Origin: a virus
Taxonomy: Duplodnaviria > Heunggongvirae > Uroviricota > Caudoviricetes
IMG/VR virus record: IMGVR_UViG_2690316161_000021
Location: 1 to 32,930 of that record
Length of the DNA stretch: 32,930 nucleotides
Reading direction: 5' to 3' (one strand)
Below, piece by piece: positions 2,215-11,445 of the stretch. A program made the position numbers and the translations under genes. Position 1 is the first letter of the stretch. Every line of letters starts with the position of its first letter. The notes under the pieces were generated by a model. It was not told the origin of the DNA. It made no database searches and saw nothing but the letters and a program-made list of their open reading frames with translations.

Positions 2215-3192
2215 TTACATTCCTCCCAAGGGATTAAACCTCACCGCATCCTGCAAGTAATCCGGCGCAAGATGGGCATAAATCATCGTTGTCTGAATCT
2301 TTGCGTGCCCCAGAATTTTCTGGAGCGTCAGAATATTGCCGCCGTTCATCATGAAATGACTGGCGAAGGTGTGGCGCAGCGCATGAACAGCCTGGCCGTC
2401 GGGAACATCAGGTGCGACCGTTTTGATGACATCGCGAACCAATGGATAATCCAGCGTCGGAAACACCAGTTTCCCGCCCCGTTTTTTGATCTTTTCAAAC
2501 AGGCTTTCAGAAATAGGAACGGTACGGTTTTTGCTGTTCTTCGTTTTTGAAAAAGTGATTCGACAATGAAGAACACGGCGCTGCTCCAGTGCCGCTACCT
2601 CGCCCCATCGCGCCCCGGTCGACAGAAGGATTTCGACAGCCAGCCGTTCATCGGGATTTTCAGCCAGTGCATCCAGCAACTGAACACATTCAGACTTACT
2701 CAGATATCCCATTTCACGCTCGTTAACCTTCATTCCTTTAAGGCCTTGAACGGGGTTATCATTAAGAAAATGGCCGGATGAGATGAGTGCGGTAAACATC
2801 GCGCTTAACGCCCCAATCTCTCGATTTATGGTGCTGGGCTGTATCCCCTGCTCTATCCTGGACACACGTAGCTCGGTGAGCATTGTTGTATTAAGTTTAT
2901 GCACGCACGGGTCATCCATTGCCTCACTCAAGCGCAGCAATTTAAGGCGCGTGTTATGCCCTGACTTCATTAGCTGGCCGTGGTATTTCCACCACAAGTC
3001 AATAAGCACTGACAGAGGACGGCGATCAATAGAGTTTCCTTTCCACTCATTGTTATGCTGTTGCGCCAGCACCCACCGCTCATATAAAACTGCATCCGAT
3101 TTCGTTTTAAATTTTTTGCGAATGCGTTTGCCTTTACGCCCCTCAGGGCGCATGTCAAGAAGATACCCTCCCGGAATTGATTTTATGCTCAT
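2215..3192 (-). CDS. int: Tyrosine-type site-specific integrase (P2 Int-like)
   Basis: C-terminal catalytic region with HxLRHT-type motif (AVHALRHTFASHF) and the catalytic tyrosine region (IQTTMIYAHLAPDYL). The ORF extends to 3342, but the start is placed at the internal ATG at 3192 (MSIKSIPGGYLL) so it does not overlap the repressor gene. Confidence 0.9.
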   Translation of the reverse strand: MSIKSIPGGYLLDMRPEGRKGKRIRKKFKTKSDAVLYERWVLAQQHNNEWKGNSIDRRPLSVLIDLWWKYHGQLMKSGHNTRLKLLRLSEAMDDPCVHKLNTTMLTELRVSRIEQGIQPSTINREIGALSAMFTALISSGHFLNDNPVQGLKGMKVNEREMGYLSKSECVQLLDALAENPDERLAVEILLSTGARWGEVAALEQRRVLHCRITFSKTKNSKNRTVPISESLFEKIKKRGGKLVFPTLDYPLVRDVIKTVAPDVPDGQAVHALRHTFASHFMMNGGNILTLQKILGHAKIQTTMIYAHLAPDYLQDAVRFNPLGGM

Positions 3193-3241
3193 TCGTGAAA
3201 CCCCAGCGTTACAAGACCACCATGCCCCCAGCGCTCCATGA

Positions 3242-3550
3242 TTAGCCGGGCTGTGTGCCAGTCTTGCGGGGTTTTTGAGAAGGCGATGTGCTTTTTGGCC
3301 CATCAGGGGAGAGAGACGGACTGATCTGCCCAGCAGCCTCATTTGTTTTTCCCGTCATAAGCCAATTCATGTACTTAAAAAAGCGAGGGTGATTAACAAT
3401 CTTGATAAGCACTTCGCCCCCTATGTTTTCAATCCGCCCCGTTTCATAACGACGCAAAGTGCCGATAGGCACATCAATCAGGCCGCAAAATTCTTCGCGC
3501 GTTAAATCCTCTGATTCACGAATCACTCTAATTTTTTCACCGATAAGCAT
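3242..3550 (-). CDS. Immunity repressor, P2 C-type
   Basis: About 100-aa protein; the pattern EKI..R.SE.L.R...GTL..YE.GR....P.F.KY..W.MT...ESGQI.P...SP.SGQKTG matches P2 C as I recall it. Sits upstream of int and divergent from the early operon. The start is uncertain (the ORF extends to 3586). Confidence 0.75.
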   Translation of the reverse strand: MLIGEKIRVIRESEDLTREEFCGLIDVPIGTLRRYETGRIENIGGEVLIKIVNHPRFFKYMNWLMTGKTNEAAGQISPSLSPDGPKSTSPSQKPRKTGTQPG

Positions 3551-3646
3551 TGACAGTGTTCCTATAAGTACACTAAGCTTGCGCACAAGGTGTACTTATA
3601 AGTACACCAAGTCACAAACAACCACAGATAGCGCAGGTTATCACAC
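3551..3646. promoter_or_regulatory. Immunity switch region with operator repeats (Pe/Pc area)
   Basis: Three copies of TATAAGTACAC: direct at 3564-3574 and 3597-3607, inverted at 3590-3600, giving the 18-bp palindrome GTGTACTTATAAGTACAC. A TTGACA hexamer lies at 3550-3555. Confidence 0.55.
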
Positions 3647-3925: not shown

Positions 3926-3939
3926 CGAGGTGTCATTTT

Positions 3940-4278
3940 ATGCTGAAGCAACGCCGTAATTTTCGTACCGGAACAGAACGCCACGCTAACCGTTTCACTA
4001 CCAGTGCATCACGCAGCAACATCCGCTACAGCCTGAGTGATACACACGCAACGCCGGATGGCTACCCAGTAAAACAAATCGGCGAGCACGCCTGGCTGAT
4101 TGAGAAAGCTGGAATCGTGATCCACAAATGCCCACGCAATCCGTTTACCGGAAACCGCATTTTTGCATTGAGCTGTGGCGACAATCAGTTCGGGCAGGAT
4201 TTCACATTATACGAAGCACTTCGCACGGTTGATCGTCTGCTTCGCGGGCAAAGTTTTATTAAACAGGCTGATTTATAA
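3940..4278 (+). CDS. Hypothetical early protein
   Basis: 112-aa ORF in the early operon, tightly packed after the cox-like gene. Confidence 0.5.
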   Translation: MLKQRRNFRTGTERHANRFTTSASRSNIRYSLSDTHATPDGYPVKQIGEHAWLIEKAGIVIHKCPRNPFTGNRIFALSCGDNQFGQDFTLYEALRTVDRLLRGQSFIKQADL

Positions 4279-4288
4279 CAGGCGCTTT

Positions 4289-4576
4289 ATGACCAAAGAC
4301 CATGCACAAGGTGTATTTATCCGTTTTATTGATTTTCGCGGTGAACTGTTATTACGTGCATCCGCTATTGACGGAGTGACTCCGGCGGGTAAAAACGGAA
4401 CCGACGAAGCCACTTACGTTTATCTGAACGGCACGCGACTGCTTGTGGAACTTCCGTACCAGACCGTACGAGAAATCATTAGCGAAGCTGAAAAGGCACG
4501 CCAGGTTAATGCCGATGAACCCTATATCGAAATTATTTGTATGGATTCAGAAGCTGAAATACAGAAAGCAGATTAA
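4289..4576 (+). CDS. Hypothetical early protein
   Basis: 96 aa from the ATG at 4289 (MTKDHAQGVF...); the longer 4175 start would overlap the previous gene in another frame. Confidence 0.5.
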   Translation: MTKDHAQGVFIRFIDFRGELLLRASAIDGVTPAGKNGTDEATYVYLNGTRLLVELPYQTVREIISEAEKARQVNADEPYIEIICMDSEAEIQKAD

Positions 4577-4587
4577 AGGGCGTTGTG

Positions 4588-4830
4588 ATGGGCAAAGAAT
4601 ATAAAACTCTCATTAACAAAGCACTTGAGCGTTTTTATTTTCGCTTAAGTGCATCAGGCGCTCATGCTGAACGTGCGGCCCGTGACTCATTGACCAGAGC
4701 AATCCGAAGTCTGTATGACGTGGCTTTTTACGCTGATGATCTGGATGCACTTAACGAACTTTCCGAGCTGATCTGTGCCGCAGAATGCGGGGAACATATT
4801 GAACCGTATAAGCTGGGAAATATCGCATGA
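4588..4830 (+). CDS. Hypothetical early protein
   Basis: 80-aa ORF with GTG-ATG start and AAAGGG upstream; its stop overlaps the next start (ATGA). Confidence 0.45.
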   Translation: MGKEYKTLINKALERFYFRLSASGAHAERAARDSLTRAIRSLYDVAFYADDLDALNELSELICAAECGEHIEPYKLGNIA

Positions 4831-4940
4831 GTATATTTATCTCATGGCTTGTTCTGATTATTTCGGTGGTCTGCGCCATTGGGATTATGCGAATTATTAA
4901 TTCAGTGAAAAAGATCGAGCGTTTTTTCTCTGATGAATAA
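4827..4940 (+). CDS. Small hydrophobic peptide (37 aa, single predicted TM)
   Basis: MSIFISWLVLIISVVCAIGIMRIINSVKKIERFFSDE; ATGA overlap with the upstream gene; absent from the ORF track because it is under 60 aa. Confidence 0.35.
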   Translation: MSIFISWLVLIISVVCAIGIMRIINSVKKIERFFSDE

Positions 4941-5032
4941 CGATACAAATAAAACATCAAATTAAATAAGAAAACGTGAAAACCATCCGTATTAATGGAG
5001 GTATTCGCACGCGTAAATAACGGAGATATAAA

Positions 5033-5449
5033 ATGAAAGCAAAAGAAGAAGGCATTATCGACACATTAAAAAAAATATCAGAAGCGGAAGATGAAATGGC
5101 TAAAGATGCCGTGAAGCGTAGCCAACATATGGCAGCACTTCACGCACTGACCATTGCAAAAATCACCGCTGACGCAGCCAAAATTATTGAGGAACAGGGC
5201 AAAGAAATCGATACTCTTAAAACACAGTCAACAGTTGCAGCCATGAATCCGTCCAGCATTGGACGCCGCATTTACATTCTTGGTTCGGCAATAATGACGC
5301 AATACACCATTATTGCCGAACTGCACGGCAAATACCTGATAACGCCTTACCACACAAAAGAGTCAGAGCTTCTGACAAATCTCCGCCTGATAGAACGCTC
5401 TCAAGCTGTATTCATTGATGACGCGCAACGTGCCGTATTTAACGCATAG
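5033..5449 (+). CDS. Hypothetical protein in an AT-rich early-region moron
   Basis: 138-aa ORF with GGAG RBS; the 4830-5450 interval is visibly AT-rich compared with its neighbours. Confidence 0.5.
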   Translation: MKAKEEGIIDTLKKISEAEDEMAKDAVKRSQHMAALHALTIAKITADAAKIIEEQGKEIDTLKTQSTVAAMNPSSIGRRIYILGSAIMTQYTIIAELHGKYLITPYHTKESELLTNLRLIERSQAVFIDDAQRAVFNA

Positions 5450-5472
5450 GGTTACTGGACAAAGGGGGCGCA

Positions 5473-5676
5473 ATGGCAATTAAGCATTTTCCCGTCGTTC
5501 GCTTTACCTCCAGAGGGCGCGAATACGAGGTCGACGAACGCCTGATTACCACTATCGACAAACATCGTTCGGAAAAGGATGCACACCACATCTACCTCAC
5601 TGACGGCACTTACTTCTGCGCCACCAACGTGGCGCGAGTAAATCTTATCCGACAGGTACAGGAGCCACGCAGATGA
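5473..5676 (+). CDS. Hypothetical early protein
   Basis: 67-aa ORF with GGGGG RBS 7 nt upstream. Confidence 0.45.
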   Translation: MAIKHFPVVRFTSRGREYEVDERLITTIDKHRSEKDAHHIYLTDGTYFCATNVARVNLIRQVQEPRR

Positions 5677-5939
5677 TCATTCTGGACTACATCGCTACTC
5701 ATCCGGGGTGTAGCGGCGGAGAGATCGCCGCAGCACTGAATACCCCAACCACAGCCATTAATGCTGAGTTACGCCGACTTTGGCGCGGCGGCTTAGTCAT
5801 CAGAACAAACCGCAGCACAGGTGGTCGCGCTCGCAAAACAGGAGGCCAGGCTTCTTACCACGTAAACCCGATGCCGTTCGGGTGTAGCAATCCACTTACT
5901 CACATGTTTAACCAGCTACTGAAGGAAGCCAGAGCATGA
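5673..5939 (+). CDS. Hypothetical early protein, possible winged-helix DNA-binding fold
   Basis: 88-aa ORF, ATGA-coupled to both neighbours; the winged-helix suggestion is a guess from the LDYIATHPGCSGGEIAAALN...LRRLWRGGLV pattern. Confidence 0.4.
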   Translation: MIILDYIATHPGCSGGEIAAALNTPTTAINAELRRLWRGGLVIRTNRSTGGRARKTGGQASYHVNPMPFGCSNPLTHMFNQLLKEARA

Positions 5940-6235
5940 GCACCATCAACCACCAGAAGCTACGCGAACTGGCATTTGCCCTGCAACGAATGGCAACGCC
6001 TCAAAAATTACTGGCATTTCGCGCAATGCTCTCGCCGTCTGCTGTGCTGGCACTGCTGAATGAGCTGGAGCACGCCAGAACCACGGCTCCTGCCATTCGC
6101 CTGACGCTCCATCATGAAATCGCTGATTTCTGCGCGACGTTGGAGGCGCCGGGCGAACCGGAAACGCCGGAAGCAATACAGCAAGAGCTGCTGCAACGCA
6201 TTGACAAGGTTTTTGATTTTTTTCTGAACCAGTAA
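5936..6235 (+). CDS. Hypothetical early protein
   Basis: 99-aa ORF, translationally coupled to the upstream gene. Confidence 0.45.
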   Translation: MSTINHQKLRELAFALQRMATPQKLLAFRAMLSPSAVLALLNELEHARTTAPAIRLTLHHEIADFCATLEAPGEPETPEAIQQELLQRIDKVFDFFLNQ

Positions 6236-6358
6236 GAAACCAGAACATGCACACACAAAAAAACCGCTTGCCATGCCGCAATCAGTCAGGTTACATTTCC
6301 GCTGCACCTCATAAAACGGGTGCCGGGATTTCCACCCCGCTGACAACCAAAGCGCACA

Positions 6359-6378
6359 ACCGCGCCAGCGGTTTTTTT
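6359..6378 (+). terminator. Intrinsic terminator inside the early operon
   Basis: Stem ACCGC/GCGGT with GCCA loop followed by seven T residues (6372-6378). Confidence 0.5.
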
Positions 6379-6557
6379 GTGCGTACCGTATCGCCACGTC
6401 TTTTTCGCACACGAATTATGGTGGGGCGTACAGGGCCGACTTCGGTCGGGCCGGGTTCTTTGGTTGCCGGTTGTGGAAACCCTGTACGTCTCACCACCCC
6501 GAGTTTTCCACCTCTGGATGGTGAGTTTTCAAAACTTACAACCAAAGAGGCCACCCC

Positions 6558-6788
6558 ATGGCAAACCGCAAACAACAGCGCGCATACGCTGCGCGTCGTC
6601 ACATCCAGACTGAAATCAACCGCAGACTTTACCGCGCATCACGCGTCGCTCGTATCATGTTCATCAACATGTCACATGAGCACAGCCACGTGCTGTCAAA
6701 CGCCTACTCCGCCGCAGTATTTAGCTATCTGGCGGATGATCTGCGCGAGCTTCAGCAGCTCATCGAGCAGCAAAACAAACCCCATTAA
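6558..6788 (+). CDS. Hypothetical early protein
   Basis: 76-aa ORF with AAAGAGG RBS 7 nt upstream. Confidence 0.45.
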   Translation: MANRKQQRAYAARRHIQTEINRRLYRASRVARIMFINMSHEHSHVLSNAYSAAVFSYLADDLRELQQLIEQQNKPH

Positions 6789-6860
6789 TTCCTGTTCCGG
6801 GCCTTTCCTGCACCTTGCGGCGGGAGGCCTTCGCACATCTGTAGTAAAGAGAATTGCAGC

Positions 6861-7250
6861 ATGATTGACGCTCATGACTTCACAAGATGGGTGCGCACAC
6901 AGGACACCCGTCTGGCTCCCGTTCTTCAGGGATTATTTGATCTCTACATCCGTGGTCGTGACAACAGAGCACGCACCACAAAACCGGAGAATGCAGACAC
7001 CCTTTATTTCACAGTAGACGACTGCTACCGCGTGGACTTCACACCACACGGGCTGGCGTTGCACTGCCTGACACCACACGGAGAATCACTGCTGGCGTAT
7101 TACGACTCCCCGGCCTCCGTATTTGCGGCAATGCTGGCGCATCGCACTGCTGGCGGGTGTGCCTCGCTGAGTGAATACACCGCTGAATTTAACCGCCTTT
7201 CTGCCCTCTTCTCGCAGGAGTGGCAGCGCGTGACGGGATACCAGCCATGA
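6861..7250 (+). CDS. Hypothetical early protein
   Basis: 129-aa ORF immediately upstream of gene A; its stop overlaps the A start. Confidence 0.45.
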   Translation: MIDAHDFTRWVRTQDTRLAPVLQGLFDLYIRGRDNRARTTKPENADTLYFTVDDCYRVDFTPHGLALHCLTPHGESLLAYYDSPASVFAAMLAHRTAGGCASLSEYTAEFNRLSALFSQEWQRVTGYQP

Positions 7251-10093
7251 ATGAGTTTGCATGGAGCTGGAATGAACCACGGCCAGCCATTGATCCGGCC
7301 AGATTTACGGAGCACAGGCAGGAAACTGAAACCGACCTGCAACGCGCCATCCGTTACTACCTTGAGGCAGACAAAAAGGCTCTGGAAGAACAGGAAGCGA
7401 AGGAGGAAGCCTTTTTCGCACAATCCACCGTGGGTAAAAAACTCATGGCATCCCTTGAGGAAGCCGGACAGCGTGAAAAGCTGGCACAAAGCATCATCAG
7501 CAAGCGTCAGGCAACAGAACAAGACCCGGTGGCCCGTGCTTTTGCCACACTGAAGGTGCTTCCCGTTTATCTGCGTGAACCTCTGAGCCGCCACCTCTCT
7601 TTCCTGCGCAAAAAACAGGAAGCCGATCGCCAGAAAGGCAAAAAGAGCTGGCAGGCTGAACGCTACGCGCGCGGAACCCTGCGCAAAATATTCGAACGCC
7701 TGGACCGCACCGACCACCGCTGGCTGACACCGGGTTATCGCTCCCTTGCCGGACGCGAACGCCTGGATGATTTGCTTTACCTGCCGCAGCTCAACAAGCA
7801 CCAGATACAGACGCTGGCCACCATGACGGCGGCGATGTTCAGCAGCACCTTCGAAAAACTCTGCGATGGCTTTGGCGCGACCGATGGTGAGCTGACCATG
7901 GATGTAACGCTGAAGGCGTATCAGATGCTGGCCCGCATGGCGTTACACCTGCACGCCATGCCTCCACATTATGACGCACTGACAACAGACAAAGACCGGA
8001 GGAACGAACCGGACACGGAGCTGCTGCCGGGCGCAATCCTTCGCCTGACCTGTGCGGAATGGTGGAAACGCAAACTGTGGCTGTTACGTTGCGAGTGGCG
8101 GGAAGAACAACTCCGCGCCGCCTGTCTGGTTTCCAGAAAAACATCACCCTATCTGAGCCAGGACGCGTTAAGCGAGTTTCGCGCACAGCGCGAGAAAACA
8201 CGCGATTTCCTGAAAAGTTTCATGCTGGAAAATGAAGACGGGTTCACGATTGATCTCGAGACGGTGTATTACGCGGGAGTAAGTAACCCGGTTCACCGTA
8301 AGGCAGAAATGATGGCCACCATGAAGGGGCTGGAACTTCTGGCCGAAGCCCGTGGCGACAGAGCGGTGTTTCTGACTGTCACCTGCCCGTCAAAATACCA
8401 CGCAACAACGGAGAACGGTCATCCGAATCCCAAATGGAACGGGGCCACTATGCGCGACTCCAGCGATTACCTGGTTAACACGTTTTTTGCGGCGGTCCGC
8501 AAAAAACTGAACCGCGACGGCCTGCGCTGGTATGGCATCCGCACGGTGGAGCCTCACCATGACGGCACTGTGCACTGGCATATGATGGTCTTTGCACATC
8601 CGGACGAGATTGAAACCATCGTGTCCCACGTCTGCGATATTGCCATTCAGGAAGACCGCCACGAGCTGGGCGATGACATAACTCCGCGTTTTAAGGCGGA
8701 GTACGTCGACGGCTCAAAAGGCACGCCAACCAGCTACATCGCCACCTACATCGGAAAGAACCTGGACAGCCGCGCCGTGGATGGCATCGACCCGAAAACG
8801 GGCAAGCCACGCGTTGACCACGAAACAGGTAAATCAATGGCCGAGAGCGTGGAGCGCGCCATCGGCTGGGCGCGCCTTCACCGGGTCCGTCAGTTCCAGT
8901 TCTTTGGCATCCCCTCCCGTCAGGTGTGGCGTGAACTGCGCCGCCTTGCCAGCCAGATGGCACGCAATCCGGAAGGCCCGCAACGGCTGAAGGATGACGC
9001 AATGGACGCGGTACTCGCTGCCGCTGATGCCGGATGTTTTGCCACCTACATTGAGAAACAGGGTGGCGTACTTGTTCCACGCAAAGACTACCTGATTCGC
9101 ACCGCCTACGACCTCGCAGATGAGCTGAACGATTACGGTGAACAGAGCGTACAGATTTACGGGATCTGGTCGCCGCTCATTGGGGAGTCTTCCCGCGTAT
9201 GCACGCATCCGGATAACTGGAAGCTGGTAAGACGCAAACCGGAAGCGGAAGACAGCGCCCGCGAAAATGGTTTTGACCTTCAGGGCGGCCCTGCCGCCCC
9301 TTGGACTCGGACTCGTGGCAATAACTGTCCCCGTGTACAGGAAACAGGCAACAACGGGACAGAACAGCCGGAAGAACGGCCAGCACCGTGGCCGCAGCTT
9401 CCTGACGGCGTTGAAGTAAATGAATGGATGCGCTCACTGAAACGGCACGAACGCCGGGCGCTGATGCGTTCGCTTCGTGACAAACAGGCAAAAAACAGCA
9501 GCGATGAAATGCAGAACTGGACACAGAGCCGCAAACAGCAGCGGCCTTTGCCTGATAACCACGAGTTACTCGCTAAAGAATGGCGGGAGTCTGCTGAATC
9601 TCTCGGCCTGCATATCGGTGAACAACAGATGCAGCACCTGTTACGGGGCGGCAGTCTGTACGTTGACGGCAGCATCATTGCACCGCAGGGATTTGAAATT
9701 GTACGCAAACCGGATACCCGCCCGGACAGCCGAATCACGCAGCTCTGGCAGCGTCTGAGCCGTAATCATGGCGTAAGCAGCACGGAGATCCGCCATAACC
9801 CGGTCGCCAGCTATCTGGCACAGCTGGGGGCATCAGACCCTGAAGCCGCCGCACGCCTGGCATCCACACTTCAGCAGGACCAGAACACCATGAAAACACC
9901 CGTTACCGTGCTTTCTGACATGCTGCGCGCCATCCGCGACGCAGAGCACGCACAGAGAATCAGTGAAACCACTGAACGCGCCAGCCGCAAAGCAGACCTG
10001 CTGCGGGGTGGCCTGACCAGTGGAAACAAAAAACAGACAGAAACGGGACTCACGAATCCCGTAAATGAGCAAAAAACGCGCAGCGATATATGA
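7247..10093 (+). CDS. A: Replication initiation endonuclease, P2 gpA family (rolling circle)
   Basis: About 950 aa with an HUH-type motif (HHDGTVHWHMMVF) and a tyrosine-containing region (YIATYIGKN) typical of P2 A-type initiators. The start could be 7220 or 7247; the C-terminal roughly 250 aa looks like an extension. Confidence 0.85.
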   Translation: MNEFAWSWNEPRPAIDPARFTEHRQETETDLQRAIRYYLEADKKALEEQEAKEEAFFAQSTVGKKLMASLEEAGQREKLAQSIISKRQATEQDPVARAFATLKVLPVYLREPLSRHLSFLRKKQEADRQKGKKSWQAERYARGTLRKIFERLDRTDHRWLTPGYRSLAGRERLDDLLYLPQLNKHQIQTLATMTAAMFSSTFEKLCDGFGATDGELTMDVTLKAYQMLARMALHLHAMPPHYDALTTDKDRRNEPDTELLPGAILRLTCAEWWKRKLWLLRCEWREEQLRAACLVSRKTSPYLSQDALSEFRAQREKTRDFLKSFMLENEDGFTIDLETVYYAGVSNPVHRKAEMMATMKGLELLAEARGDRAVFLTVTCPSKYHATTENGHPNPKWNGATMRDSSDYLVNTFFAAVRKKLNRDGLRWYGIRTVEPHHDGTVHWHMMVFAHPDEIETIVSHVCDIAIQEDRHELGDDITPRFKAEYVDGSKGTPTSYIATYIGKNLDSRAVDGIDPKTGKPRVDHETGKSMAESVERAIGWARLHRVRQFQFFGIPSRQVWRELRRLASQMARNPEGPQRLKDDAMDAVLAAADAGCFATYIEKQGGVLVPRKDYLIRTAYDLADELNDYGEQSVQIYGIWSPLIGESSRVCTHPDNWKLVRRKPEAEDSARENGFDLQGGPAAPWTRTRGNNCPRVQETGNNGTEQPEERPAPWPQLPDGVEVNEWMRSLKRHERRALMRSLRDKQAKNSSDEMQNWTQSRKQQRPLPDNHELLAKEWRESAESLGLHIGEQQMQHLLRGGSLYVDGSIIAPQGFEIVRKPDTRPDSRITQLWQRLSRNHGVSSTEIRHNPVASYLAQLGASDPEAAARLASTLQQDQNTMKTPVTVLSDMLRAIRDAEHAQRISETTERASRKADLLRGGLTSGNKKQTETGLTNPVNEQKTRSDI

Positions 10094-10169: not shown

Positions 10170-11129
10170 ATGAAAATTTACATCGACGACGGCTCCACCA
10201 ACATCAAGCTGGCATGGACTGAGAACGGCGAACGCCGCAACGCCATCAGCCCGAACAGCTTCAAGTCGGAATGGTCTGCGCCGTTCGGTGGCTCGCAGCC
10301 TGCTAACTACATGCTTGATGGCGTGCGCTATGGTTTTGATCCGGTCAGCGATCGCTTTGTCCAGACGACCGACACGCAATACCAGTACAGCGATGTGAAT
10401 GTCATTGCCATTCATCACGCGCTGGTCAAATCAGACATCACGCCACAGGAAGTGGATGTGGTTGTTACCCTGCCACTGAGCGAATATTTCGACACAAACG
10501 CACAGCCGGACATGGCCAACATCAACCGCAAAAAAGCGAACGTCATGCGCCCGGTGGAGTACCAGAACGGCGAAGCATTCACTATCCGTAACGTACGGGT
10601 TATGCCTGAATCCATTCCGGCTGGCTTTAAAGCACTGGCTGACATGAGTCCGTTTGAATCCCTGCTGATTGTGGATTTGGGCGGAACCACGCTGGATGTG
10701 GCAAAGGTTCAGGGGCAACTGGCAGGTATCAGCCAGGTGTTTTGCGATCCACACGTAGGCGTTTCTCTTATGGCCGATGCCGTACTGTCGGTGATGGCCA
10801 CTAACGGTATGCGCACCAGTCACCACATCGCCAATACCATTATCGAACATCGCCATAATGAAGCCTGGCTGCGCCAGCACATCCACAATGACGCGCATTA
10901 CGCCAGCCTGATGGCGGTTATTCGTGAAAAGGAAGAAACACTGAAACAACGCGTGATCCGCGCGCTGGCGGTTTTTTCGGGTTACGGGCGGGTGATGGTT
11001 GTCGGTGGCGGGGCGGAGATTGTGGCACCCGCTATCCGCGAAGCCTGCGGAGTTAATGCGACTTTCATCGCGGACGGGGTGCCACAGTTTGCTCTGGTTA
11101 ATGGGCTGTACGCAATGGACAAGGAGTAA
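10170..11129 (+). CDS. parM: ParM/StbA-like actin-type segregation ATPase
   Basis: 319 aa with actin-fold motifs IDDGSTNIKL, DLGGTTLD and VVGGGAE. From memory it is collinear with plasmid R1 ParM (YSDVNV, ERKKAN, VMPESIPAG); not verified by search. Confidence 0.8.
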   Translation: MKIYIDDGSTNIKLAWTENGERRNAISPNSFKSEWSAPFGGSQPANYMLDGVRYGFDPVSDRFVQTTDTQYQYSDVNVIAIHHALVKSDITPQEVDVVVTLPLSEYFDTNAQPDMANINRKKANVMRPVEYQNGEAFTIRNVRVMPESIPAGFKALADMSPFESLLIVDLGGTTLDVAKVQGQLAGISQVFCDPHVGVSLMADAVLSVMATNGMRTSHHIANTIIEHRHNEAWLRQHIHNDAHYASLMAVIREKEETLKQRVIRALAVFSGYGRVMVVGGGAEIVAPAIREACGVNATFIADGVPQFALVNGLYAMDKE

Positions 11130-11133
11130 ACCA

Positions 11134-11445
11134 ATGACGACACCAACCAGACGGATAAGTTTCTATCTGAAGCCCGCCGCCGTCAAGAACGAAGGAGAAG
11201 CATGCGCCTGGCTGGACAGCCTTACACCAGAAGCCCGCAAAAGCGGCCAACGCGTGGCTTTTCTGGCCGGGCTGGCACTTCTGAAGACGAATCCGGCAGA
11301 GGCTTACCGACTGGCCGCATGGGCTGATGATGAGATGTTACCTGTGACACAAATCAGCTCAAAAAAGTTTGAAGCACAGTCTGCACCAGTGGCTAAGATA
11401 ACCAGCCAGATGGCTGGGAATATCCGGGCGTTATTTCCTGAGTAA
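11134..11445 (+). CDS. parR: ParR/StbB-like small DNA-binding partner
   Basis: 103 aa starting 4 nt after the parM stop with AAGGAG RBS; N-terminal RRISFYLKP and LAGLAL resemble R1 ParR as I recall it, and the C-terminus ends IRALFPE. Confidence 0.6.
   Translation: MTTPTRRISFYLKPAAVKNEGEACAWLDSLTPEARKSGQRVAFLAGLALLKTNPAEAYRLAAWADDEMLPVTQISSKKFEAQSAPVAKITSQMAGNIRALFPE

Follow-up and report, generated by a model that had tools for sequence, protein, structure and literature searches.

A conserved membrane-peptide gene and an optional 138-aa gene in the early operon of a P88-like Escherichia coli prophage

Introduction

The toxins Hok, Fst/Ldr and TisB and the regulators MgrB, AcrZ and SidA are proteins of about 30-50 aa that carry one hydrophobic helix and a short charged tail. 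In the Gre, DksA and TraR factors, conserved acidic residues at the tip of a helical hairpin reach the catalytic site. Temperate phages also carry genes that can be present or absent at a given position, among them the phage morons, the P2 accessory genes old, tin and Z/fun, and the cargo of the gpA-gpQ hotspot, which is the only hotspot of P2-like phages found in a term search of Rousset et al. 2022 (PMC9122126).

Here we describe a locus in a stretch of viral DNA of 32,930 nucleotides (IMG/VR record IMGVR_UViG_2690316161_000021), which we refer to in its whole length as the window. Like morons, the P2 accessory genes and the gpA-gpQ hotspot, the locus has an optional gene and a slot in which alternative, unrelated cargo is found; the optional gene is also lower in GC content than the window. 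We show that the finding is composed of two unrelated items in the early (Pe/Cox-side) operon, a 37-aa membrane peptide and a 138-aa protein, and we ask what each of them might do.

Results

The window is a P88-like E. coli prophage (genus Xuanwuvirus, Peduoviridae, P2-family). E. coli JP538 matches positions 4500-5700 at 100% identity, and phages P88, P884B11, vB_EcoM-569R5 and Citrobacter phage Shae_phiSM match them at 85-94%. The features of the region are as follows:

2215-3342, minus strand: integrase
3242-3586, minus strand: HTH repressor
Rightward run, first part: Cox-like gene, DUF4761, phrog_3800, DUF4754, 37-aa ORF, 138-aa ORF
Rightward run, second part: phrog_3459, MarR-type winged helix, Ead/Ea22-like gene, replication endonuclease (7220-10093)
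4585-4830, plus strand: DUF4754 gene, 81 aa from GTG or 80 aa from the ATG at 4588
4827-4940, plus strand: 37-aa single-pass membrane peptide gene, a core gene of P88-like phages
4941-5013, plus strand: AT-rich backbone spacer of 73 nt, left border of the variable slot
5014-5459, plus strand: presence/absence cassette of 446 bp, comprising an RBS, the 138-aa gene and a short tail that gives the next gene its RBS
5473-5676, plus strand: 67-aa gene matching phrog_3459 (without assigned function; E 1.1e-45)

The rightward run has the same position and orientation as the early operon in the P2 annotation, and since layout and direction agree, the original prediction, made from the letters of the window, was fair in calling it an early operon. 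The run starts beside the C repressor and Cox-like genes, and in P2, according to its annotation, this operon is repressed in lysogens. The gene that precedes the peptide matches Pfam PF15946 (DUF4754; E 2.9e-54) and phrog_2549, a PHROG without assigned function, and has a pN/pS of 0.054. In a homologue search its family was restricted to Escherichia-type prophages, with members at least 71% identical; longer DUF4754 "fusion" proteins were set aside as frameshift artefacts. The phrog_3459 gene, with a pN/pS of 0.16, lies directly 3′ of the slot in all loci that we compared.

Both ORFs are confirmed (37 aa at 4827-4940 and 138 aa at 5033-5449). We compared 87 related sequences, which are the window, six annotated or genome records, and 80 IMG/VR contigs picked by DUF4754 similarity. 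The original prediction had taken 4827-5449 for an AT-rich block acquired as a moron. The block is AT-rich: its GC content is 0.406 and that of the window is 0.530. Just 1.5% of windows of 623 bp lie as low, and the lowest-GC 300-bp window in all 32.9 kb starts at 4801. However, it is not one inserted unit. Phages P88 and P884B11 both have the peptide gene and the AT-rich spacer without the 138-aa gene, and in alignments with the window the common sequence ends at 5013 and restarts at 5460. P88, P884B11 and all 87 loci have the spacer (4941-5013), whether or not a cassette follows it. The peptide gene and spacer are thus backbone (87/87 loci), and only 5014-5459 varies. The GC content is 0.351 in the peptide gene and 0.333 in the spacer, compared with 0.434 in the cassette and 0.459 in the DUF4754 gene. 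Because the lowest GC content belongs to the backbone and that of the cassette is higher, the dip in composition does not mark an insertion. The moron description holds for the 138-aa gene as far as it is accessory, and fails for the peptide gene, which is not.

We examined the peptide gene across these loci. The start codon at 4827-4829 shares two bases with the TGA (4828-4830) that ends the DUF4754 gene, so the ATGA coupling that had been noticed is real, and all 87 loci have an intact ORF with this coupling. Among 29 distinct alleles the pN/pS is 0.20 in frame, compared with 1.68 and 1.15 in the other two frames, and variable columns fall at codon positions 1/2/3 in the numbers 7/3/14. Judged by this pattern of substitution, the peptide gene is a real and conserved core early gene under purifying selection. 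In seven loci a one-base change in a T-run replaces the last four residues with a 12-residue tail, so the extreme C-terminus is dispensable, while M1-F33 is kept. Although the peptide is missing from the ORF track, as had been pointed out, it is not missing from public annotation, where it is WP_000021666.1 in RefSeq, the "membrane protein" gp07 in P88 and a "Prophage membrane protein" in UniRef. It is present on at least 1000 contigs, and tblastn among phages found it in P88-like phages only. No Pfam, PHROG, NCBIfam or PADLOC family recognizes its sequence.

The mean Kyte-Doolittle hydropathy over residues 3-21 is 2.81, which is that of a strong transmembrane segment and bears out the single membrane span of the original prediction. 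The tail that follows (residues 22-37) is K/R-rich and amphipathic. Under the established positive-inside rule, the peptide should have its C-terminus in the cytoplasm and its N-terminus out. We also considered by eye whether the peptide could be a lipoprotein and rejected this reading, as the N-terminal region has no K/R and the S-V-V that precedes Cys16 in this allele does not make a lipobox. The tight coupling suggests that the peptide and the DUF4754 protein may act together.

We next consider the contents of the slot. It is empty in 46 of the 87 loci. In 45 of these, the peptide stop and the start of the phrog_3459 gene lie 85-87 nt apart; in the other they lie 61 nt apart, and the gene that follows is truncated. 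A family member of 136-138 aa fills the slot in 34 loci. One locus (L038) has a relative of 122 aa that shares the N-terminal half but differs in its C-terminus, and one from E. albertii (L006) has a 137-aa relative of 38% identity together with an extra gene. The remaining five carry an unrelated 87-aa gene, which hhalign compared with the 138-aa family at a probability of 4%, indicating no real relationship. No flanking duplication was found at the cassette borders among the junctions of the 87 loci. Every cassette type stops at the ATG of the phrog_3459 gene, which forms the right border of the slot, and the differing cassettes each keep an RBS or a start-codon overlap for the downstream gene.

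Among 5426 complete E. coli genomes, the backbone (4585-5015) was found in 1389, at 1553 places, and the cassette in 836, at 876 places, in identity bands from ≥99% down to 60-80%. Presence or absence across related prophages had been proposed as a check, and the collinear relatives with and without the 138-aa gene show that it is optional. The slot alleles fall into two groups, of approximately 78-100% and 52-62% amino-acid identity to that of the window, with further alleles at 37-38%, and two mosaic alleles (P0004 and P0015) have the N-terminal half from one group and the C-terminal half from the other. Divergent alleles at the same position, along with the mosaics, argue for an old slot that has been reshuffled by recombination, so the 138-aa gene is an old resident and not the recent acquisition that its composition had suggested. 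We also asked if the state of the slot depends on immunity type, and rejected this idea: C/Cox alleles that are nearly the same (96-100% identity to those of the window) accompany empty slots as well as slots with allele A (138 aa) or allele B (136 aa). A phrog_3459 protein identical to that of the window is likewise found with different slot states.

A crude consensus scan of the plus strand found no promoter-like or terminator-like site in 4641-6268, although a weak internal promoter could escape such a scan. Promoter-like matches in the region numbered 4, compared with 4.1 expected from shuffles, and a weak match lies on the minus strand within the peptide ORF (4911 to 4884, 9/12). The 138-aa gene has its own RBS inside the operon (GGAG at 5022-5025, 7 nt 5′ of the ATG), as originally described. 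With no flanking plus-strand promoter or terminator detected, it is not a moron in the sense of an autonomous gene; most simply, it belongs to the early transcript and is not expressed in the lysogen. We conclude that the 138-aa gene is probably transcribed within the early operon; a weak internal promoter, if present, would allow expression in lysogens. Exclusion by the lysogen is unlikely for both genes, because they appear to be transcribed from the repressed early promoter alone. The spacer contains a 5-bp hairpin (4986-4999), the 3′ arm of which lies within a GGAGG (4997-5001). The hairpin is paired in 98.9% of cells, with one compensatory C-G to U-A pair, and the RNA fold of 4925-5045 has a z of -2.8. 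No Rfam family was found in 4800-5100.

The 138-aa protein is WP_000644726.1, a "Prophage protein", and its sole profile match is phrog_9338 (without assigned function; E 2e-80). In agreement with the original prediction, which recognized no family, there was no significant match in Pfam, NCBIfam or PADLOC or to PDB sequences, the last searched with both the single sequence and a profile; neither protein matched a PADLOC defence model at E <= 1. When 1.84 billion representative proteins were searched exhaustively with a profile, there were 25 matches, all of them members or fragments of the same narrow enterobacterial family. This family occurs in P88-like phages only and reaches phages of E. 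albertii and Citrobacter, at 38-56% identity and in the same position.

The ORF is full-length in 35/35 carrier loci. Its pN/pS is 0.52, compared with 0.05-0.20 for its neighbors, and its pN is 0.178, compared with 0.007-0.041. By part, pN/pS is 0.72-0.89 over codons 21-40 and 0.31-0.38 towards the C-terminus; it is nowhere above 1, and the pattern is also compatible with relaxed constraint. Alleles that are 52-98% identical retain 33 invariant columns. Conservation is found at the extreme N-terminus (MNAKEEGII..LK) and the end of helix 2 (AAEIIEKQ..E...LK.Q), and is highest in the C-terminal domain (YLITP...ES..LTNLRLIERSQ..FIDDA..FNA). The protein is near neutral (pI 6.4), with no hydrophobic segment and no catalytic motif.

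Structure prediction, which had also been proposed as a check, was performed with AlphaFold and gave models of moderate confidence (mean pLDDT 76-79) with two domains:

5033-5227, plus strand: predicted N-terminal domain (residues 1-65), an antiparallel two-helix hairpin
5228-5449, plus strand: predicted C-terminal domain (residues 66-138), a small five-stranded SH3-like beta-barrel

With a 22-sequence alignment, the model has helices at residues 3-28 and 32-64, followed by a less confident beta domain. Within the hairpin, the mean pLDDT of 10-residue blocks is 92-95 from residue 11 to residue 50 and drops towards either end. The base of the hairpin is conserved, and variability in the protein is greatest at the tip (approximately residues 17-45). 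Residues 66-138 modelled alone gave the five-stranded barrel with a pLDDT of 78.7. The barrel resembles structures of Spt5/NusG KOW domains, of PWWP-ssDNA and of B. subtilis YfhH (1sf9, a "putative transcriptional regulator"), and a Foldseek search of BFVD with the 138-aa protein found no match at E <= 0.001. The hairpin and barrel thus come without an informative relative in sequence or fold, and the models predict a non-enzymatic two-domain protein.

Discussion

Based on these results, we suggest that the two genes have separate roles. The peptide would be translated by ATGA re-initiation after the DUF4754 gene and would cross the inner membrane once as a helix, leaving the K/R-rich tail on the cytoplasmic side and the N-terminus on the other. 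Its target during the lytic cycle is probably the membrane itself or a membrane protein, and the DUF4754 protein may be its partner. The 138-aa protein would be produced only once the early operon is derepressed and would act by stoichiometric binding, in which the surface of the hairpin base and the barrel stays constant and that of the tip varies. Its role would probably be on the phage side of a conflict, neutralizing a host defence, a host factor or a competitor such as a P4-type satellite, and it would be neither a core replication function nor a lysogenic-conversion gene.

We give a probability of about 0.4 to the main reading, in which the 138-aa protein acts by binding during the lytic cycle, in a conflict of the phage with its host or with a satellite. 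Presence and absence, deep allele divergence, domain swapping and alternative cargo are together the usual signature of conflict genes. Counting against this reading, the gene is missing from approximately 40-50% of related prophages, which means that a benefit, if there is one, is conditional, and SH3-like barrels are functionally promiscuous. The main alternative, which we regard as unlikely, is that the gene is an unimportant passenger under relaxed constraint that is lost by deletion, and that the slot is a tolerated junction between modules. This would account for a gene that is missing in about half of the relatives, that has a pN/pS approximately 3-10x that of the neighboring genes and that has no detected homology to anything functional. 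However, a passenger would not be expected to stay full-length in every one of 35 carriers, to keep its pN/pS below 1 (and at 0.31-0.38 in the C-terminal domain) and 33 invariant columns among divergent alleles, or to persist at the same position in phages of E. albertii and Citrobacter, nor would each cassette type be expected to keep an RBS or start-codon overlap for the gene downstream. There is a smaller chance again that the 138-aa protein regulates by binding nucleic acid or polymerase, either as a Gre/DksA/TraR-like secondary-channel factor or as a KOW/Tudor-like accessory of replication or transcription. Its architecture of a hairpin and a small globular domain would suit such a role, as would the likeness of the barrel to Spt5/NusG KOW, PWWP-ssDNA and YfhH; P2 has the DksA/TraR-like Orf82 in the equivalent early operon, and no TraR-like gene is seen in that of the window. 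Yet the hairpin tip, where such factors have their acidic residues, is the most variable part of the protein and is not acidic (KRSQH in this allele), and the C-terminal fold is SH3-like, unlike that of Gre C-terminal domains or zinc fingers, with no C4 cysteine pattern. Moreover, no Pfam KOW, GreA or DksA match was found, the protein is near neutral, and its gene is optional.

The peptide could instead be a membrane-damaging toxin acting in the mode of the type I toxins Hok, Fst/Ldr or TisB, which kills or arrests the cell early in the lytic cycle and is perhaps checked by an antisense RNA. We consider this improbable. Its size, single hydrophobic helix and charged C-terminal tail are like those of Fst/Ldr-type toxins, and the weak minus-strand match within the ORF could be read as an antisense promoter. 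But the number of promoter-like matches is what shuffled sequence would give, no Pfam, NCBIfam or PHROG toxin family and no Rfam RNA were found, and the gene is ATGA-coupled in an operon and does not stand alone behind a structured 5′ UTR; killing the host early would also be a cost to the phage. The least probable of the readings, with very little to be expected of it, is the one from which the analysis started, in which the whole AT-rich block is a recently acquired moron and its products act in the lysogen as toxic, exclusion or takeover factors. The low GC content (0.406), the presence and absence of the 138-aa gene among relatives and the small hydrophobic peptide are in its favor. Against it, the peptide gene and spacer are backbone in every locus and are also the most AT-rich part, slot alleles at the same position diverge down to 37% identity and so are not recent, no flanking promoter or terminator was found, and the operon starts beside C repressor and Cox-like genes, an arrangement that is repressed in P2 lysogens.

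The conflict reading can be extended to the slot as a whole, which might be a new diversity hotspot in the early lytic operon, with the cargo family as a new class of counter-defence or anti-satellite binders in which variation of the tip tracks the targets. The family would be modular, with a conserved hairpin base, a hypervariable tip and an exchangeable C-terminal barrel, but we hold this extension to be doubtful. If the slot gene does have a counter-defence or anti-satellite function, P2-like phages would have an early-operon hotspot in addition to gpA-gpQ, and there would be a new family of small inhibitors; a peptide with a membrane target would give the P88-like group a conserved factor for early manipulation of the host. 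P88-like prophages are found in approximately one quarter of complete E. coli genomes (1389/5426), including O157:H7 EDL933, and both proteins are therefore very common. A literature search covering both proteins, DUF4754, P88, CP-933T and phage 186 early genes gave no functional data and no mention of the proteins. Both are already annotated, as hypothetical or prophage proteins, and we conclude that this is an ordinary case of uncharacterized accessory genes in a temperate phage, for which the reading as a recent moron has been corrected.

Several known systems can be set beside the locus. The peptide is similar to the type I toxins and to MgrB, AcrZ and SidA in its size, helix and charged tail, without a sequence family match to them, and differs from the type I toxins in being coupled within a phage operon instead of forming a stand-alone locus with an antisense RNA. 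The C-terminal domain of the 138-aa protein is predicted to have the five-stranded barrel fold in common with Spt5/NusG KOW, with Tudor/chromo/PWWP domains and with YfhH (1sf9), but sequence identity to SH3-like barrels is 2-17% and there is no Pfam KOW or Tudor match; because the fold is common to many unrelated functions, it indicates a "binding module" and little more. P2 Orf82 (DksA/TraR-like) and the Gre factors are, like the 138-aa protein, small and made of a hairpin and a globular part, and Orf82 is encoded in a P2-family early operon. The 138-aa protein has no zinc finger, no conserved acidic tip and another globular fold, and we take the likeness to be an analogy of shape only. Compared with morons and the P2 accessory genes, the 138-aa cassette has no detected promoter or terminator, encodes a single small protein and matches no defence model, and, as far as the arrangement of the operon can tell, its gene is expected to be expressed in the lytic cycle and not in the lysogen. 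Finally, the slot differs in location from the gpA-gpQ hotspot (PMC9122126), as it falls within the early operon, with the peptide gene on one side and the phrog_3459 gene on the other.

Variation at the borders of the slot and in the peptide gene

The variable slot, which lies downstream of the 37-aa peptide gene and is filled here by the cassette carrying the 138-aa gene, has a short potential RNA structure at its left border:

4986-4999, 5-bp hairpin (UCCGY, 4-nt loop, RCGGA)

This hairpin is kept in 87 of 87 related loci and shows one compensatory pair, in which C-G is replaced by U-A. Paired cells amounted to 98.9%, as compared with 33-60% when the partner columns were slid. The 3′ arm is taken in by a Shine-Dalgarno-like GGAGG at 4997-5001, and no usable start codon was found after this motif. 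We suggest that the hairpin may act as a boundary for recombination or have a regulatory role. At the other side of the slot, the phrog_3459 gene is preceded just 5′ of its start by a purine run that is its ribosome-binding site (window equivalent 5460-5472) and that varies in length, reading AAAGGGGG in the window, A8G7 in locus L041 and G11 in locus L064. The length differences in L041 and L064 could alter translation of the phrog_3459 gene.

A second run of variable length, the T-run at 4925-4930, lies close to the 3′ end of the peptide ORF and differs by one base in seven of the 87 relatives (loci L033, L034, L058, L073, L074, L076 and L079), where a 12-residue tail takes the place of the last four residues and yields a 45-aa form. 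The peptide gene is also present, within a P88-like early region whose DUF4754 protein is 97.5% identical, on a 226-kb contig titled Vagococcus sp. WN89Y (locus L005, NZ_JBQPOM010000071.1), which probably reflects contamination or an enterobacterial assembly that was given the wrong label.

State of the prophage and neighboring elements

A RefSeq record with 100% identity across 4500-5700 has its DUF4761 gene (equivalent to window ~3937-4288) annotated as frameshifted and its ash-like gene annotated as truncated, and therefore the prophage may be partly decayed. In the immunity region, the C repressor of this record is 62% identical to that of the window and the Cox-like protein 86%. The ash-like gene corresponds to a mechanical 205-aa ORF (6247-6864), named in RefSeq as a truncated "ash family protein", within which two RNA matches both fall:

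6304-6378, +, isrK Hfq-binding sRNA (Rfam, 64 bits; gathering score (GA) 50)
6414-6501, +, C4 antisense RNA of P1/P7/P4-type immunity systems (Rfam, 82 bits; GA 45)

Both matches are upstream of 6558-6788, the site of the "derepression protein" gene in P88 and the EDL933 prophage.

The gpA-gpQ interval, a known P2 defence hotspot, gave no PADLOC match and contains, in the window, two genes in succession:

10170-11129, +, ParM/StbA actin-like partition ATPase (Pfam, E 1e-80 and 3e-68)
11134-11445, +, StbB-like "plasmid stability protein" (E 1e-23)

We conclude that these genes are a plasmid-type segregation pair within a P2-like prophage.
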